This document shows, piece by piece, positions 6,402-54,621 of a stretch of DNA of 64,000 nt (positions within the stretch are counted from its first letter, which is position 1; each line of letters opens with the position of its first letter). This stretch comes from an uncultured virus (IMG/VR IMGVR_UViG_3300037067_017539) (lineage: Duplodnaviria; Heunggongvirae; Uroviricota; Caudoviricetes), in the IMG/VR virus record IMGVR_UViG_3300037067_017539, one strand, 5' to 3'. A program made the position numbers and the translations under genes. Below the pieces are notes generated by a model. That model was not told where the DNA came from and did not search any database. It saw only the letters and a program-made list of their open reading frames with translations.

Positions 6402-6773
6402 ATGGCTGCAACACAATTTGATTGGATTACTGCTTTTTACGCTTCAAAAGAATCAGGTTACACAGATATTTCTGACCCAGTTATTTCAAACCAACTTTAT
6501 GAATCCAGTAATCCACTTGACGAACTGCTGAAAGCCGAAAAAGAACATTTATCCAATGAGCGTTATCTTTCCTTATCAGATGAAGCAAAAGAACTTGTTG
6601 ATATTATTATTTCTACTCCTGCTGAATTTTTGGAAGCATTTGGTTTTAAAACAGTCAGAAGTGCAAATCCTACCAGCATCGAAGCGGCATTACGCAAACG
6701 CTGGAAAGATTGGAAATATGCCCGACAGGTTGTTAGGGAAGTTAAAGAATATGTTAAGGAGGCAATCTGTTGA
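6402..6773 (+). CDS. hypothetical protein
   Basis: 123 aa, coupled to the helicase start. Confidence 0.6.
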   Translation: MAATQFDWITAFYASKESGYTDISDPVISNQLYESSNPLDELLKAEKEHLSNERYLSLSDEAKELVDIIISTPAEFLEAFGFKTVRSANPTSIEAALRKRWKDWKYARQVVREVKEYVKEAIC

Positions 6774-8170
6774 AAATAATTCAAAACGATCCAATTCATT
6801 GTTCAGTTGTTCCGCCAATAGAAATCAATAAAATCAAAAAAGTTTTTGAATATCCTTCAGAATATTGGATACAAGGCGCTTTTAAAAAACAACGAAAATG
6901 CACAACTTCATTAATGGCAAATCATCCACACAAAGGTTGGTTTTTGGCTGGTTCATTACCAGCTGTAAAAAAATATTGTGAAATAAATGCAATACCACTT
7001 GAAATAGAACAATATGTTCCGGAACCAATAAAAATGGTTCGGGCAGCATTGCCGGGTATAACTTTCCGTGAAGATCAAAAAAATGCTATTGATACAGTTA
7101 TAAAACAATCCCGTGGAATAATAAAGGCACCGACCGGCTCCGGTAAAACTGTAATGGCTGGTGGAATAATTTCAATGTATCCGGATTCTAAATCTATTGT
7201 GATTGTGCATACAAAAAGTTTATTTTTGCAAACGGTTGAAGAACTTAAAAAATGGTTTGGTAATACCGTTGGGGAAATTGGTTCTGGAGTATATGAACCA
7301 AATAAAATAACGGTATGCATGATTCAAACTGTAAATAAAATTTTGATTAATAAAAAATCTGATAAATATGATGAGTTTTTTGATTTGCTTGTAGATGTTG
7401 ACGTTGTAATAATTGATGAAGCTCACCATTTGGCAAAAGATCAAGGCCATTATGTGGAATTAATGCTTTCTTGCTTGGCACCAATCAGAATCGGCCTTAC
7501 AGCCACACCAAATCCGAAGAATAAAACAAAGGAACGTTTGGTAGGGGAAGGTCATTTGGGGCCTGTTATGGGTGAATTAACCGTTGAAAAAGGCATTGAA
7601 AGCGGTATACTGGCGCAACCAAGATTGAAGCTTATACCAGTTCCAAAAAATATAACTGTTAAAAGCAAAAAATATGCAGATATTTATCGAGACTGCATCG
7701 TTTTAAATAAAACCAGAAACCGGCTTATTGCAAAAGAAGCATCTGATACGATACGGGCAGGCAAATCTGTGTTAATAATGATTTCTGACATTGTAAATAA
7801 ACATGCAGAAACAATTCGAGATTTGATGATTGATTTGTATGACACAGATTCTCTTATTGTTACTGGGGCAACTGATAATGATTTGAGAGAACAAATTAAA
7901 TCAACATTGAAAACTAAAGATATTCTTTGCGTCATCGTTACCAGTGTTTGGAGGGAAGGAATCAATATTCCATCGTTGGATTGCATTATTAATGCGATTG
8001 GTGGCAAGAGTGATATTATGGTTCTTCAGGTTGCAGGAAGAGGGTTAAGAACGGCAGAAGGTAAAGAGGAAATTTTGATTGTTGATTTTTTAGACCCATA
8101 TCAGTTTCTTGCACAGCATAGTATAGAACGGCTCAGAATTTATAATGATATGGGTATTCTTAATAAATAA
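6770..8170 (+). CDS. superfamily 2 DExH helicase (UvsW/ResIII-like)
   Basis: APTGSGKT, IIDEAHH, GLTATP, EGINIP, QVAGRGLR. Confidence 0.9.
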   Translation: MKIIQNDPIHCSVVPPIEINKIKKVFEYPSEYWIQGAFKKQRKCTTSLMANHPHKGWFLAGSLPAVKKYCEINAIPLEIEQYVPEPIKMVRAALPGITFREDQKNAIDTVIKQSRGIIKAPTGSGKTVMAGGIISMYPDSKSIVIVHTKSLFLQTVEELKKWFGNTVGEIGSGVYEPNKITVCMIQTVNKILINKKSDKYDEFFDLLVDVDVVIIDEAHHLAKDQGHYVELMLSCLAPIRIGLTATPNPKNKTKERLVGEGHLGPVMGELTVEKGIESGILAQPRLKLIPVPKNITVKSKKYADIYRDCIVLNKTRNRLIAKEASDTIRAGKSVLIMISDIVNKHAETIRDLMIDLYDTDSLIVTGATDNDLREQIKSTLKTKDILCVIVTSVWREGINIPSLDCIINAIGGKSDIMVLQVAGRGLRTAEGKEEILIVDFLDPYQFLAQHSIERLRIYNDMGILNK

Positions 8171-9792: not shown

Positions 9793-10719
9793 ATGATTGA
9801 AAATGTTGATATAAACGCCCTTTTCCAGGAATACAATATTTCAGTTAAGGAAAAGGGCGAAAATGTCACCAGAGGGTGGGTGAACATTGAAGTTTGTCCA
9901 TTTTGTATGGATTCAAATTTTCATTGTGGTATAAATTTGGCGAGTGGCGGATTTCATTGTTGGGTATGTGGCGAAAAAGGCGGATTGTGGAAATTGTTAA
10001 GAGAAATGGAAGATTTTAAAGGGCAGCATATTTCCTCTATTATAGCCAAATTTGTTTTAGACCATGGCAATACACCAATAAATAATTATAATGCCACTAC
10101 AGACAAATTAGACGGTAAAAAACCAATAAAATTCAGTTGGCCAGAACATATTTTAGAAGATTTACCAAAACCACACAAGGATTATCTTTTATCTCGGCAT
10201 TTTGACCCTGATTTTTTAGCCAAAAAATATAACCTTAAAGCAGTATACAATATTGGAAAACATAAGTTTAGAATTATTGTGCCTGTAATAATCAACAAGA
10301 AAAAAGTTTCTTGGGTTGCTGCTTGGGTTTTACGAAAACAATTTTCTGATGTAACTCCATATTTAAATTGCACACCTGAAGAATCTGTCATACCGATAAA
10401 CCATTGCCTGTATAATTACGATTCGATAAAAGACGTTGCTGTTATTGTTGAAGGAATTACCGATGTTTGGCGATGTGGTGCTGGCTTTGTAGCATCATTT
10501 CGGAAGGGGCTTACATCAGAACAAATTAAATTATTGATGGAAAAGAAACTAAAGAAAGTATTTGTTTTTTATGATTCTGATGCAACAAAGGAATCATATA
10601 AGTTTGCCAATGAAATTTCAGGCCTGTTTCCATCTGTTGAAGTTTTGGAACTGCAAACTGGTGATCCGGGGGATTTGACCCAACAAGAAGTTTATGATCT
10701 TAGAAGAGATATTTTTTAA
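9793..10719 (+). CDS. DNA primase (Zn finger + TOPRIM)
   Basis: CPFC...H...CWVCG; IVEGITD; FYDSD; GDPGD. Confidence 0.85.
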   Translation: MIENVDINALFQEYNISVKEKGENVTRGWVNIEVCPFCMDSNFHCGINLASGGFHCWVCGEKGGLWKLLREMEDFKGQHISSIIAKFVLDHGNTPINNYNATTDKLDGKKPIKFSWPEHILEDLPKPHKDYLLSRHFDPDFLAKKYNLKAVYNIGKHKFRIIVPVIINKKKVSWVAAWVLRKQFSDVTPYLNCTPEESVIPINHCLYNYDSIKDVAVIVEGITDVWRCGAGFVASFRKGLTSEQIKLLMEKKLKKVFVFYDSDATKESYKFANEISGLFPSVEVLELQTGDPGDLTQQEVYDLRRDIF

Positions 10720-10756
10720 AAATAAAGCTTTTAAAAAGTAAAAAAGTAATGTATAT

Positions 10757-11060
10757 ATAAAACCGTAAGCTGTGAATTTTGGGATTCATGCCTTACGGTT
10801 TTATTTTATGACGCCAATATATTAAGCAAGATAGTTAAAAATTTATAATTTGTAATTTGTAATCAATAATTTTAAGCCGTCTCTAAATAAGAGGCAAGAA
10901 CCAGTCGAATTTTTATTTTCAACGATTTGGTCTTGTCCCCAAAACAAGTCCTTCGATTATAAATTATAAATTGCAGTGTAACTACTGCTTGTGATTGGCG
11001 TCACAATAATTCGTAAATCGACTGTCTTGTCTCTTATTTAGGGTCGGCTTTTTTATTTTT
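10757..11060 (+). ncRNA. candidate structured regulatory leader RNA upstream of the initiator genes
   Basis: 13-bp hairpin 10757-69/10792-804; long helices 10809-56/10956-11003 and 10874-908/11018-50 with G-U pairs; T tract after. Confidence 0.6.
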
Positions 11061-11074
11061 AATTGGAGGTTAAA

Positions 11075-11431
11075 ATGGAATTTTGGAATAAGAATGAAAA
11101 TGCAAAAGAATTGTTTAACGCTCTTTATACAAATAATGGTAAATTAATTGTCAACAGAAGATTTGTAAAAAGGGCAGGGCTTTGTGAAGCTGTAATTTTT
11201 ACTGAATTGATGCAACAAGAAATTGAAGCAGAAGAAACCGGTGAAATATATGATGAAGATTGGTTTTCTTGCAAACAGAAAAAAATAACCGATGATATTG
11301 GTTTATCAGTTGAAGAACAAAAACTGATTATTGAAAAAATGATTGAAATGAAAATGATTGAAATGAAAAAAAATTTTGAAGGTGATTTATTTTTTAAATT
11401 GAACTACGGTTTTTTTGAAGTTGGTGCGTAA
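11075..11431 (+). CDS. winged-HTH protein paralogous to the initiator N-terminus
   Basis: RBS GGAGGT; LIVNRR..WF..GLS..Q..LFFKLNY aligns with the next ORF. Confidence 0.65.
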   Translation: MEFWNKNENAKELFNALYTNNGKLIVNRRFVKRAGLCEAVIFTELMQQEIEAEETGEIYDEDWFSCKQKKITDDIGLSVEEQKLIIEKMIEMKMIEMKKNFEGDLFFKLNYGFFEVGA

Positions 11432-11452
11432 AAATATAATCGAGGTAACTTC

Positions 11453-12829
11453 ATGATAAATAAAGAAAAAGAACAAATGAGAGAAATTTTATCTAAAGAT
11501 GCAAGCTTAGTGATAAATAAAAAGTTGCTGCATCGGATTGGTATTAATGGGACAATTTTATTGTCAGACTTAATGTCAAAAGAAAAATATTTTGAAATTA
11601 AAGGCAGGTTAGAAAACGAATGGTTTTTTAATACTCATAAAAATATATGTAAAGACACAACCTTATCTGAATATCAACAAAATAAAGCTATAGATATTTT
11701 GATAAACATTGGTGTTATAGAAACAAGATATTGCAAACAAAGTCAAAGATTATTTTTCAAAATAAATTATTCGATTTTATTGAAAACTTATGATGATTCT
11801 ATAGCTTCACCCCCCAAGAAACTTAACCCCCCAAGAAACTTGGGTACCCCCCCAAGAAACTTAGGGCTTAATAATAATAATAAGAATAATAATAAAAGAA
11901 ATAATATTTCTCTTTCTAAAGAAAGAGAACGCCGAAGTATCGGCGCTGAACTTGCTGACAGAGTTTTGGTTGAGAATAAGGTTATTCATTCAACTGGCCT
12001 TAAAATAAAACGATTGAAACCTTATCTGTTCACAAAGAACCCTGATGTTGAAGAAATATTCACTTATTGGAACCAACTGGGTAAACCTTTACCAAAGCAT
12101 AAAATAAATACCAGTTCGAAAACCTTTACCAAAGCCTGTAAACAAATCGAAAAGATATTAAAAACTTATTCAAAGGAAACCATTACCGGCAGTATGCAAC
12201 TTTATTTTGATATGATTAATATGCCCGGCTTTAAATTAAGTCATAACGGTTCCGGTGTTATTGTCAACTTAAAAGATTTTTTATTGATTGGTGATAATTT
12301 ACGGCTTAGAATGTGTCAATATCACAAAGAACTTACTATAACCAGTTGGTTCCATGAATGCCGCAAGCTGGGTGCCGCTGGGCTTAAAGAAAAATATTCT
12401 AAAGTTATTATTGATGAAAATCCAAAAATAACGGAAGCATTGAAAAGAAAGTGGTCAAACGTTATTGAAAAGAGAAGTCAGTTTACAGCTGAAGAAGAAA
12501 ATATTTTTAGGAAAACGGCAAAAGCCTTATATAATTATTTTATCGACCTGAAAGATTTTAAACAGGATCATATTTACCAGAAGGAAAATCCGATAACATG
12601 CGTTTCGTTGGTTATTAAAACCATGGCTGCAAAAAATAAAAATGACGGAACAATTCCATTCTGGTTATCATCGGCAAGTTTTTTTGAAAACGATGTAACG
12701 GCTTATTTGAAAAAGATAGGTTATATTGAACATGGTTATGATAAGAGTATTGCTCGTAGAAAAATTCATGACCAACAAAACCATTCTGATTTACCTACTT
12801 TTGAAGAACTTGGTATAGATATTTTTTAA
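11453..12829 (+). CDS. replication initiator / replisome organiser
   Basis: N-terminal wHTH, internal iteron-coded linker, Asn-rich stretch; precedes DnaB-like helicase. Confidence 0.7.
   Translation: MINKEKEQMREILSKDASLVINKKLLHRIGINGTILLSDLMSKEKYFEIKGRLENEWFFNTHKNICKDTTLSEYQQNKAIDILINIGVIETRYCKQSQRLFFKINYSILLKTYDDSIASPPKKLNPPRNLGTPPRNLGLNNNNKNNNKRNNISLSKERERRSIGAELADRVLVENKVIHSTGLKIKRLKPYLFTKNPDVEEIFTYWNQLGKPLPKHKINTSSKTFTKACKQIEKILKTYSKETITGSMQLYFDMINMPGFKLSHNGSGVIVNLKDFLLIGDNLRLRMCQYHKELTITSWFHECRKLGAAGLKEKYSKVIIDENPKITEALKRKWSNVIEKRSQFTAEEENIFRKTAKALYNYFIDLKDFKQDHIYQKENPITCVSLVIKTMAAKNKNDGTIPFWLSSASFFENDVTAYLKKIGYIEHGYDKSIARRKIHDQQNHSDLPTFEELGIDIF
11809..11905. repeat. putative replication origin: three iterons plus AT-rich tract inside the initiator gene
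   Basis: AC(6-7)AAGAAACTT at 11809, 11826, 11846; followed by AAT-rich run. Confidence 0.7.
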
Positions 12830-12855
12830 TTTAATTATATCCATTGGGGCAATTT

Positions 12856-14385
12856 ATGATTATTAAAAGACGGCTTGTTTCTGCAGATATAGAAAGAAAA
12901 ATTCTGATTGGATTAATTTCCAGTGAAAATTTTTGTAAACAAATTCATAGAATGGCAAAAAAAGAATATTTTAAATCAACAGCTTCAAAAATTGTATTTG
13001 GTTGGGCTTCAGATTTTTATGATAGGTATAGAGAATGCCCCGGTGTTTGTATCCAAGATATTTACAATGTAGAAAAAACCAGATTGAAGGATGCAGATGC
13101 CGATATTGTTGGACAGTTCATGGATAATTTATCCAAAGAATATGAACAGGCAGTATCTAACGAAGAATACTTATTGGATCAAGCAAAAATATATTTCAGA
13201 GAACGTTCATTGACATTATTGTCGGAAGAAATTGCCGGTAATGTTGCAAAAGGCCGATTACAATTAGCGGAAGATGCTGTTTATGGATATGGCAAAGTTT
13301 CTCAGCAAATGACGAACTGGTTTAATCCGATGGAACCGGCAAACATAATGGAAATATTGGATGAAAATGATTCAGATAGATTATTTAAGTTTGATGGGCC
13401 GTTAGGTGATATGTGTGGTTGGTTGGAACGGGATTGGCTTATTGCAATAATGGCTCCGATGAAACGCGGGAAAAGTTGGTGGCTGCAAGAAATAGCGATT
13501 GCCGGGTTATTGTCTGGCGTTAAGGTTGCGTATTTTTCATTGGAGATGAATAAAAAGGCGGTATCCAAACGAATTTACAAAAGGCTTACTGCGTTGGCTT
13601 CAAATGCAGGGGAACATATTTTTCCGGTTTTTGATTGTTCAAGAAATCAAACAAATTTATGTAGAAAAAAACAAAGGGCTTGTTATATTGGAATAAAAGA
13701 GCCCGGTGAGGAACAACCTGAATTTTATAACGTGGTTGGATATAAACCGTGTACTTATTGTATGGAACACGAAGAAGAAAAAGAAAATTACATACAAGCT
13801 GTTTGGTATAAACAACTTTCGCAAGAAGAAGGAATGACGATAGAAGCGGTTACAAAAAAGATGAAAAATTTCCAATTGCAATTTGGTGACAATCTTCGGG
13901 TAATGGCTTATCCTGCTTTTTCTGCTTCATTTGATGATATGGAATCTGATTTGGATTCGCTTGATTTTCAGGAAGGATTTGTTCCCGGTTTGATTTGTGC
14001 GGATTATTTTGATATTTCAAATCCCGGCAGTGGAACAGATAATTATTCTGAACGTGGTACAGCTGATTATATATGGAAGCGTGGCAAGAATTTGGCTGCA
14101 AAGCGGCATGTTTTGGTTGCAACCGTTTTGCAAAGTAACCGTTCGTCGATTTCAAAGAAAAGTATAGAGCAAGAGGATGTTTCTGAAGATATTCGTAAGT
14201 TAGCTCATGTTGATTTATTATTGGGGTTAAATCAGACTAAGGAAGAGAAGGCCGAAGGCATTATGCGAATTGGCGTGGTTGCCCATCGGCATGAAGAATT
14301 TAAGTTTAACGGCGAAGTTATAGCGTTACAGAGTTTAAACATTGGTCAACCATGTTTATTTTCTGGTTGGGCAGCAAAAGAATAA
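12856..14385 (+). CDS. DnaB-like SF4 replicative helicase with Cys-rich insertion
   Basis: APMKRGKS, YFSLEM, ICADYFD, VLQSNR; TTG at 12844 is an alternative start. Confidence 0.85.
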   Translation: MIIKRRLVSADIERKILIGLISSENFCKQIHRMAKKEYFKSTASKIVFGWASDFYDRYRECPGVCIQDIYNVEKTRLKDADADIVGQFMDNLSKEYEQAVSNEEYLLDQAKIYFRERSLTLLSEEIAGNVAKGRLQLAEDAVYGYGKVSQQMTNWFNPMEPANIMEILDENDSDRLFKFDGPLGDMCGWLERDWLIAIMAPMKRGKSWWLQEIAIAGLLSGVKVAYFSLEMNKKAVSKRIYKRLTALASNAGEHIFPVFDCSRNQTNLCRKKQRACYIGIKEPGEEQPEFYNVVGYKPCTYCMEHEEEKENYIQAVWYKQLSQEEGMTIEAVTKKMKNFQLQFGDNLRVMAYPAFSASFDDMESDLDSLDFQEGFVPGLICADYFDISNPGSGTDNYSERGTADYIWKRGKNLAAKRHVLVATVLQSNRSSISKKSIEQEDVSEDIRKLAHVDLLLGLNQTKEEKAEGIMRIGVVAHRHEEFKFNGEVIALQSLNIGQPCLFSGWAAKE

Positions 14386-15246: not shown

Positions 15247-15343
15247 GACGAAAATTAAAAAAATCAAAGAATTAATATTTTTAGGTTATAATAAAAATAA
15301 GTGGGTTATTTAAGAACTTTTTAAAATTATAATGGAGGTAATA

Positions 15344-15601
15344 ATGGGTAGAAGTGATTATGATCGTATTGATGATAATAAAAAGGTTATTCGTAAGCAA
15401 AATACCCTTTTTGATTTTCCGATTGATCCAAAAGGGAAAACTGATTGTGGTGTTAGAAAGTTTTTGATTTTTTATTTCGATGATGAAGATGATTACGAAG
15501 TGGTTCTTTCAAAGTTTATGCGGGTAAATCCCCATGTAAAGGCTCATCCGGATATGGATTCCGTAAAGTTGGCTGAACTGGCAAGAAAAATGGAGGATTA
15601 A
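15344..15601 (+). CDS. small protein adjoining the radical SAM gene
   Basis: RBS GGAGGT; stop 1 nt before radical SAM start. Confidence 0.65.
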   Translation: MGRSDYDRIDDNKKVIRKQNTLFDFPIDPKGKTDCGVRKFLIFYFDDEDDYEVVLSKFMRVNPHVKAHPDMDSVKLAELARKMED

Positions 15602-33299: not shown

Positions 33300-33328
33300 A
33301 ATATAGGCTTATGTTGCCAGTGTTTCTG

Positions 33329-33400
33329 AAGGATTATTTTTAAGATTTTTTAAAAATAATCCTTTTCTTTTTTAAAAAGATGATATATTATGAATTTAAA
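33329..33400 (+). promoter_or_regulatory. repeated promoter element, copy 5
   Basis: AAGGATTATTTTTAA...TTAAAAATAATCCTT; TTTTCT-17 nt-TATTAT(33386). Confidence 0.8.
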
Positions 33401-48629: not shown

Positions 48630-48705
48630 TCAAAGGATTATTTTTAAAGTTTTTTAAAAATAATCCTTTTCTTTTTTAAAAAACTGATATATGATGAATT
48701 TAAAA
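48630..48705 (+). promoter_or_regulatory. repeated promoter element, copy 7 (identical to copy 8)
   Basis: 17-bp arms AAAGGATTATTTTTAAA/TTTAAAAATAATCCTTT; TTTTCT-17 nt-TATGAT(48690). Confidence 0.85.
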
Positions 48706-54545: not shown

Positions 54546-54621
54546 TCAAAGGATTATTTTTAAAGTTTTTTAAAAATAATCCTTTTCTTTTTTAAAAAAC
54601 TGATATATGATGAATTTAAAA
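54546..54621 (+). promoter_or_regulatory. repeated promoter element, copy 8 (identical to copy 7)
   Basis: 76/76 nt identical to 48630-48705; followed by RBS with G7 run. Confidence 0.85.

Follow-up and report, generated by a model that had tools for sequence, protein, structure and literature searches.

A structurally conserved leader upstream of a phage replication initiator, a candidate bistable attenuator with two interleaved long-range helices

What is the function of a 355-nt spacer that lies between the primase gene of a large phage and a 118-aa ORF preceding its replication initiator gene, and that can fold into two interleaved long helices? The question matters since the replication initiator sets the timing and frequency of phage origin firing, and little is known about how it is dosed in large virulent phages. 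The window (the whole stretch of 64,000 nt analysed here) is phage DNA with a G+C content of ~35%, a positive GC skew and all its genes on the + strand. The genes of the replication region that frame the spacer are the following:

6770-8170, + strand: SF2 helicase gene, part of a full replication set
9793-10719, + strand: DNA primase gene, upstream neighbour of the leader (phrog_47, E 2.8e-31)
11065-11077, + strand: GGAGG (11065-11069) and ATG (11075), start of the 118-aa ORF
11075-11431, + strand: ORF of 118 aa without family, first gene 3' of the leader
11453-12829, + strand: O-like replication initiator gene (phrog_428, E 6.3e-10; phrog_9773, E 3.6e-8)
12844-14385: DnaB-like helicase gene, after the initiator

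Genes for a DNA polymerase, clamp, clamp loader, recombinase, terminase and portal are found farther downstream. The CHC2 zinc finger (PF01807) of the primase scored just under the cutoff. Our preferred reading, to which we assign a probability of about one half, is that the spacer is the + strand RNA leader of the initiator/helicase unit and works as a bistable attenuator with two mutually exclusive folds.

Relatives of this region are scarce. A distant blastn search with positions 9800-12900 against a phage GenBank collection gave zero matches, of 164 genomes from the family of the nearest genome, searched at the DNA level, a single one (G001) contained the region, the others showing chance-level short matches, and a large protein search yielded only 9 relatives of the initiator. 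Near-identical DNA occurs on a 24-kb contig filed under an Eubacteriales metagenome-assembled genome and in landfill and groundwater metagenomes; no RNA run turned up among the public sequencing runs listed for this stretch. The segment 10600-11800, which covers the 3' end of the primase gene, the leader, the small ORF and the N-terminal third of the initiator, is ~100% identical to that of one relative (L002/L034), the flanks being only 88-90% identical to the same relative. In a distant lineage (L086, positions 10-1810), a transposase gene (phrog_506, E 9.5e-120) stands upstream of the leader in the place of the primase gene, so the leader appears to travel with the initiator and not with the primase; an ORF of 138 aa resembling HNH/homing endonucleases is inserted there between leader and initiator. 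In L045 (4310-4430), the primase frame ends ~110 nt short of the end found in its relatives, which may reflect a frameshift or an assembly error.

The structural elements of the spacer follow each other in the order A-B-A'-B', preceded by a hairpin and followed by a T tract:

10757-10804, + strand: hairpin 1, with apex TTTTGGG (10777-10783), then TTTTATTTT (repeat finder)
10803-10866, + strand: helix A, 5' arm, with core TGACGCCAAT (10809-10818), then an AT-rich arm; pairs with A'
10874-10912, + strand: helix B, 5' arm (repeat finder; duplex of the two B arms -48.9 kcal/mol, z -10.2)
10929-10951, + strand: small hairpin with a loop complementary to the hairpin-1 apex (minimum-energy fold)
10953-11010, + strand: helix A, 3' arm (A'), ending 4 nt before B'
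11015-11050, + strand: helix B, 3' arm (B') (repeat finder)
11049-11060, + strand: T tract right after B', a putative terminator tail; present behind the long helix in 13 of 13 loci

The main block of helix B (10874-10899/11025-11050) comprises 26 nt that are 88% complementary, and it is extended by 10902-10911/11015-11024. We thus recovered the long helix, T tract and ribosome-binding site that a first-pass annotation, made from the letters alone, had described here. The predicted RNA fold of the + strand reaches -99.1 kcal/mol (z -8.05; none of 100 shuffles was as good) and that of the - strand -80.8 kcal/mol (z -6.07). A standard terminator scan, with a loop limit of 8 nt, listed neither hairpin 1 nor B:B', whose loop is far larger. 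In fact, B:B' is exceptional in this genome, since the window's other small-loop terminator-like hairpins have loops of 4-8 nt. The T-rich tail after B' (TTTTTATTTTTAA, 11050-11062) is nearly repeated after the 5' arm of helix B (TTTTTATTTTCAA, 10910-10922). A second long-range AT-rich helix, with a borderline score of 34, is found at 15310-15467, where arms of 24 nt separated by 110 nt run into a T tract and overlap the start of an 89-aa ORF located before a radical-SAM gene.

We gathered related loci via initiator alignments and primase alignments, which yielded a set of 13 loci from 12 lineages (10 primase-anchored loci plus the window, L033, L036 and L086); L035, L038, L044 and L082 are one contig, and the results for L049 and L050 were identical. 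Minimum-energy folds of whole spacers, computed with T tracts ignored, repeatedly had as their main feature one long-range helix ending at the T tract. A score for this arrangement, a long helix with a T tract at its end, was at least 35 in 9 of 38 primase-anchored loci, and L043 reached 28 owing to a bulge; the primases of these 10 loci are 33-60% identical to that of the window. Among 670 control windows of 650 nt from the same loci, taken on both strands, none attained 35 and 9 attained 28. None of the more distant primase relatives (L051-L079) scored at least 35, and L084 and L085 had no such helix.

Across the 13 loci, helix B is a near-continuous duplex of 24-37 bp that encloses 47-125 nt, with duplex energies of -37 to -49 kcal/mol (z -9 to -15) and a G+C-rich stem base lying between an A tract and a U tract. 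In 9 of 11 loci, 5-46 nt separate the T tract from the start codon downstream of it; the distance is 106 nt in L054 and 154 nt in L036. The arms themselves have diverged strongly: the 5' arm shows a mean pairwise identity of 0.44 across lineages, and 3.5 pair types occur per position in the first 17 pairs. A MAFFT alignment of 11 elements disagreed with the structure and gave 0 predicted pairs in RNAalifold; therefore, we relied on helix-anchored counts and on the MAFFT alignment of a subfamily of five sequences. In this subfamily 87.7% of the cells pair, versus 24-52% when the partner is slid, and 14 of 40 pairs have changed on both sides, a number reached in none of 500 shuffles. The covariation that the first-pass annotation had advised looking for in homologous spacers 5' of the initiator is thus strong, both in these two-sided changes and in the number of pair types. 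An alignment of 11 loci from the 5' arm of B to the T tract retained only 7 invariant columns, with 44% mean identity and an internal part devoid of conserved blocks. The leader is conserved as structure and not as sequence, and the persistence of the same RNA architecture while nearly every nucleotide changes, in about a dozen lineages, points to a working structure.

We considered and discarded a riboswitch, as the internal region of the 11-locus alignment contained no conserved ligand-binding core. Searching Rfam 15 with positions 10000-12000 at E values up to 10 gave 6 matches, all with E of at least 1 and far under gathering; at gathering score, the ten related loci (73,393 bases) gave a single match, which is located outside the spacer. 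The leader thus has no Rfam family at gathering score, either in the window or in the ten related loci, and the resemblance to the P1 C4/P4 CI immunity RNAs evoked at first was not found. The single match in the related loci is to the type II hammerhead ribozyme (61.6 bits; gathering score 37), in L054 at 1246-1311, ~3 kb upstream of the leader.

A helix of this length invites a simpler explanation, namely that it is an insulating terminator combined with an RNase III processing site, placed between the primase and initiator transcripts and setting the ends and stability of the mRNAs. In T7 early mRNA, RNase III substrates are found at intergenic sites. The long near-continuous duplex of B:B' is more than termination requires and exceeds the 12-22 nt arms of the window's other small-loop terminator-like hairpins. 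However, processing does not need the U tract that follows the helix in every locus, and it leaves A:A' unexplained, which makes this explanation quite unlikely.

The mismatches of helix B indicate which strand folds. For each locus we compared the 5' arm with its 3' counterpart, reverse-complemented, in an alignment that scores G.T and A.C alike. Ten loci (L033 being omitted as a near-duplicate) gave 272 Watson-Crick pairs, 20 G.T, 0 A.C and 8 other mismatches; L047 and L086 added 4 G.T and 0 A.C, bringing the total to 24:0. Approximately 15 of the 20 G.T are independent, since 3 lie in the extension formed by the A and U tracts and 2 are common to L043 and L046. The positive GC skew could favour G.T somewhat, but hardly 24 to 0. 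The deviations already noted in the first pass as G-U-compatible on the + strand are therefore real. Since a double-stranded palindrome or cruciform would show no bias, it is the + strand that appears to fold, most simply as RNA, although in principle it might be single-stranded DNA.

This last possibility would turn the spacer into a DNA element, either a folded single-strand signal on the + strand (a priming or primosome site) or a part of the origin. Its location between the primase and initiator genes suits such a role: Streptococcus thermophilus phages have their origin downstream of the primase gene, in non-coding DNA rich in repeats. G.T is moreover the most tolerated mismatch in DNA hairpins, so that the observed bias fits single-stranded + DNA as well, and the nearly identical 10600-11800 segment between less similar flanks resembles an origin-plus-specificity module. 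Nevertheless, a single-stranded signal needs neither a T tract nor a fixed place before the ribosome site, a double-stranded cruciform is at odds with the strand bias, and the spacer (10720-11074) has no iterons, only AT-rich repeats of 7-8 nt. We consequently regard a DNA element as very improbable. The iteron-like repeats and an AT-rich run occur instead inside the initiator gene:

11805-11906, no strand assigned: candidate origin within the initiator gene, a 17-nt unit present 3.2 times, then an AT-rich (TAA)n run

In 5 of 11 loci (the window, L033, L045, L049 and L036), the initiator gene carries tandem repeats of 17-24 nt, differing in sequence, at a relative position of 0.26-0.29. These iteron-like tandem repeats suggest that the origin lies inside the initiator gene, in a lambda-like layout, and not in the spacer; a lambda-type origin in the spacer itself was discarded because tandem iterons of 15-25 nt are absent there. 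The iteron unit of L033 is unlike that of the window though the initiators are 90% identical. Together with the sharing of 10600-11800 described above, this difference looks like the exchange of an origin/specificity module. We also rejected the idea that the initiator binds its iteron sequence in the leader, as the iterons of the window and L033 differ and their leader cores are nearly the same.

Returning to the attenuator reading, its second component is helix A:A'. The repeat finder delimited two blocks in the window (10806-10818/10994-11006 and 10840-10856/10956-10972), and the local alignment of the whole A region with A' was better than that of all 200 shuffles, with a duplex energy of -46.6 kcal/mol (z -4.4). 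The first-pass description of helix A was thus accurate as to the blocks present in the sequence, and all the helices described at that stage exceed chance. A' can alternatively form two local hairpins (10973-10988 and ~10990-11005). When the window transcript is cut before B', A is predicted to pair with A' through 44 pairs.

A comparable complementarity between a segment upstream of B and the segment just 5' of B' recurs across lineages, kept as architecture, with A' adjoining B' in most loci. The pairing of the last 24 nt before B' with the upstream region was beaten by 0-3 of 300 shuffles in 9 of the 13 loci and by 6-9 of 300 in L054 and L047, but it was at chance in L048 and L036, so that 11 of 13 loci support it. 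Over the whole region, A:A' is as strong as B:B' in the window, L043, L045 and L046, with duplex energies of -47 to -60 kcal/mol and a complementarity that extends over 35-60 nt with bulges; this whole-region test failed in L042, L047, L048 and L086. Other segment pairings were mostly at chance in the duplex test against shuffles. In predicted folds, transcripts cut before B' contain A:A' in 11 of 11 loci (10-51 pairs) and additionally in L047 (12 pairs) and L086 (14 pairs), and in the full-length RNA B:B' is favoured over A:A' by 11-35 kcal/mol.

The strand bias of A:A' is weak (20 G.T vs 11 A.C), which leaves room for another reading. A and A' would be duplicate operators bound by a protein on double-stranded DNA, the first close to the transcription start and the second ~150 bp downstream, perhaps with DNA looping, and B:B' alone would be RNA, a plain terminator. 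Coordinated change of two binding sites would mimic covariation; A and A' are both palindromic in L043 and L046; and L035 and L042 carry a third copy, identical to the A' core, upstream of a -10-like hexamer. However, A is not palindromic in most lineages, the long complementarity measured in the window, L043, L045 and L046 goes far beyond the length of an operator, and an operator would not need to adjoin B', as A' does in most loci. Such operators therefore seem a highly improbable explanation of A and A'.

The variation within the window's own lineage bears on which part of the leader is most constrained. Between L033 and the window, positions 10700-11100 contain 44 differing columns. The A arm accounts for 13 of them and A' for only 1, an imbalance that counts against A:A' pairing; B has 2, B' none, and the loops of the internal part 3; the B-to-B' core differs at 6 columns in 181 nt. 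Several of these changes respect pairing. In B, the two changes exchange U.G and C-G at adjacent pairs; in a local hairpin, a G.U becomes an A-U through 10978 G>A; 10852 and 10859 G>A likewise convert G.U into A-U; and 10808 A>G makes helix A three pairs longer. The core 10684-11054 is represented in two metagenomes by one invariant contig, with two variants of both flanks (13 differences in 114 nt; 20 differences and 6 gaps in 176 nt), and in a third run (X5) 10975 A>G replaces an A-U with a G.U.

A conserved core of this kind might also belong to a stand-alone structured small RNA of ~180-300 nt acting in trans on replication or on a host factor, with B:B' as its closing stem and own terminator and the initiator made by leak-through only. 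In many stable small RNAs the 5' and 3' ends likewise pair as a long stem, with a U tract behind it, and it is indeed the B-to-B' core that is best conserved in L033, compared with the A arm, and invariant in two metagenomes. Yet the internal sequence is not conserved among the 11 aligned loci, the conserved competing helix A:A' just 5' of B' finds no explanation, and the start codon is so near in 9 of 11 loci that transcription of the initiator crosses the terminator anyway. On balance, we consider a small RNA acting in trans unlikely.

Upstream of the two helices lies hairpin 1, whose arms (10757-10777/10784-10804) measure 21 nt and are 86% complementary, the perfect 13-bp stem reported in the first pass being their outer part. 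Its score of 34.5 is the highest among the window's terminator-like hairpins with loops of 4-8 nt (the others score 24-34), and no counterpart was found in the spacers of other lineages, so that it is specific to the window's own lineage; for these reasons we interpret it as probably the ordinary terminator of the primase gene, possibly bidirectional. Three near-identical terminator-like hairpins (arm AAAGGATTATTTTTAAA, loop of 4) occur elsewhere in the window, at 33328-33365, 48632-48669 and 54548-54585, after different genes. The small hairpin at 10929-10951, also noticed initially, is present in the minimum-energy fold; its loop is CCCCAAA(A), and 10938-10944 are the complement of the hairpin-1 apex at 10777-10783. 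This loop-loop complementarity, to which the first-pass annotation had drawn attention, holds in the sequence, and its support is one co-change: in L033 both loops are shorter together (TTTTGGG to TTTGGG and CCCCAAAA to CCCAAA). Hairpin 1 is, however, not conserved beyond its lineage. In several lineages A and A' are each placed in a hairpin loop and, given also the complementary loops of the window, kissing between loops may start or gate A:A' pairing.

Candidate sites for transcription of the leader in either direction are as follows:

10728-10757, + strand: speculative promoter-like CTTTTA-N18-TATATA after the primase stop; a like layout at the same offset in L035, L042, L043, L045 and L046
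10869-10897, - strand: candidate antisense promoter TTGCCT-17-TAAAAT; window and L033 only

The first has a poor -35 match, is the only conserved promoter candidate and cannot be taken as established because the pattern has 1 match in the window versus 0.73 expected by chance; the same count led us to discard CTTTTA-N18-TATAWW as a recurrent phage promoter. ATATCTTTTA was found once per related locus. Several lineages have a -10-like hexamer 2-7 nt before the A core, so A could be the 5'-terminal segment of the transcript. The short distance from T tract to start codon leaves little room for a promoter downstream of the terminator in 9 of 11 loci, and a promoter inside the B-B' loop, allowing escape from the terminator, was rejected since a consensus match exists in only 1 of 11 loci (L043). 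The antisense candidate, detected by a consensus scan that is weak evidence either way, occurs in 2 of 11 loci, other - strand sites being located elsewhere; an RNA initiated there would run leftwards across A and end at hairpin 1. Leader-peptide control was discarded as well: the only ORF, of 5 codons at 10808, has no ribosome site, and nothing comparable was seen in the related spacers inspected.

How might such a leader work? In the attenuator reading, B:B', a long-range stem of ~35 bp closing ~100 nt, would be an intrinsic terminator; the stem ends, at a U tract, 14 nt before the ribosome site. Given the position of the T tract in 9 of 11 loci, transcription of the initiator must cross this terminator-like structure. 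A:A' would be complete before B' is transcribed, leaving B inside the loop closed by A:A', and would thereby act as an antiterminator without having nucleotides in common with the terminator. Because B would be enclosed in that loop, B:B', which makes three turns, could not wind until A:A' opens; from the geometry, we infer that winding would require the RNA 3' end, held by the polymerase, to be threaded through the loop. That the antiterminator blocks the terminator by topology, and not by competing for the same nucleotides, is a doubtful proposal at this stage. The terminator would never act if A:A' always formed first, so a separate trigger is needed. Occupation of A or A', or their retention in local hairpins, would free B:B', and transcription would end short of the initiator; the candidate triggers are an antisense RNA, a protein that binds RNA and kissing between the complementary hairpin loops. 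Against an antiterminator, B' alone can fold a hairpin of 6-7 bp beside the T tract in L035 and L045 (-7.8 and -7.5 kcal/mol); A:A' would be no obstacle to it. The initial idea of an RNA attenuator of the replication genes has gained in that the loci keep the interleaved order A-B-A'-B' together with the T tract and a ribosome site close by; transcription and termination themselves belong to the proposed mechanism.

In a bolder extension, terminated leaders, in which both A and A' are present, could bind nascent leaders in trans via the complementary hairpin loops. If so, termination would increase as genome copies accumulate, providing sense-to-sense dosage control without an antisense gene. 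If the attenuator is confirmed, the design of RNA switches would gain a principle, synthetic biology a compact bistable component, and Rfam a family that it lacks at present.

We did not find this element described in the literature, although a catalogue of 10,006 viral candidate RNAs, searched in part, may list the motif (PMC10690425), nor did we find in the attenuator literature a terminator spanning ~100 nt interleaved with a non-overlapping competitor. The leader shares with ordinary intrinsic (Rho-independent) terminators a G+C-rich stem base that an A tract precedes and a U tract follows, but its stem is far longer and closes a structured insert. Long-range pairing of the 5' end is a known class of RNA switch, exemplified by the fold-back of hok mRNA. 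If A is 5'-terminal, it would similarly pair over a long range, in competition with a final fold of greater stability; unlike hok, no toxin gene is involved and the output would be termination instead of translation.

The closest functional parallels are the antisense-driven attenuators of plasmid rep genes, pT181 repC and pIP501 repR, in which an inverted repeat and a poly-T stretch lie just 5' of the initiator start, the pT181 pre-emptor pairing with the terminator's own 5' arm, as far as the available part of the source describes them (PMC5703833). With them the phage leader would share its length, a default fold that prevents the terminator and the control of a replication initiator, in addition to the inverted repeat and T tract at a similarly short distance from the start (in 9 of 11 loci) and, in the window and L033 but not elsewhere, an antisense promoter-like site in mid-leader. 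It departs from what that part of the source reports for pT181 in that the pairing of the upstream region with either arm of B is at chance in most of the 13 loci (z around -3 in the window, L033 and L036 only), A' lies beside B' and not inside it, and the terminator stem spans 47-125 nt in place of a short loop. The replicon is also different, a large phage with an O-like initiator and not a plasmid. The second parallel is cATTpLS20, of the pLS20 conjugation operon, a zipper-type system in which, according to the portion of its description available to us, the antiterminator is nested and overlaps the 5' stem as well as the loop of the terminator (PMC13401043). Like the phage leader in the proposed reading, it belongs to a Firmicutes mobile element and has a long leader, a long imperfect stem, an antiterminator that forms by default during transcription and two conformations similar in energy. 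The phage leaders differ from the zipper type in that their upstream complementarity involves the segment before B' and not B' itself; compared with cATTpLS20 as so described, their helices are interleaved in the order A-B-A'-B' with no nucleotides in common, and the putative terminator is itself the long-range helix.
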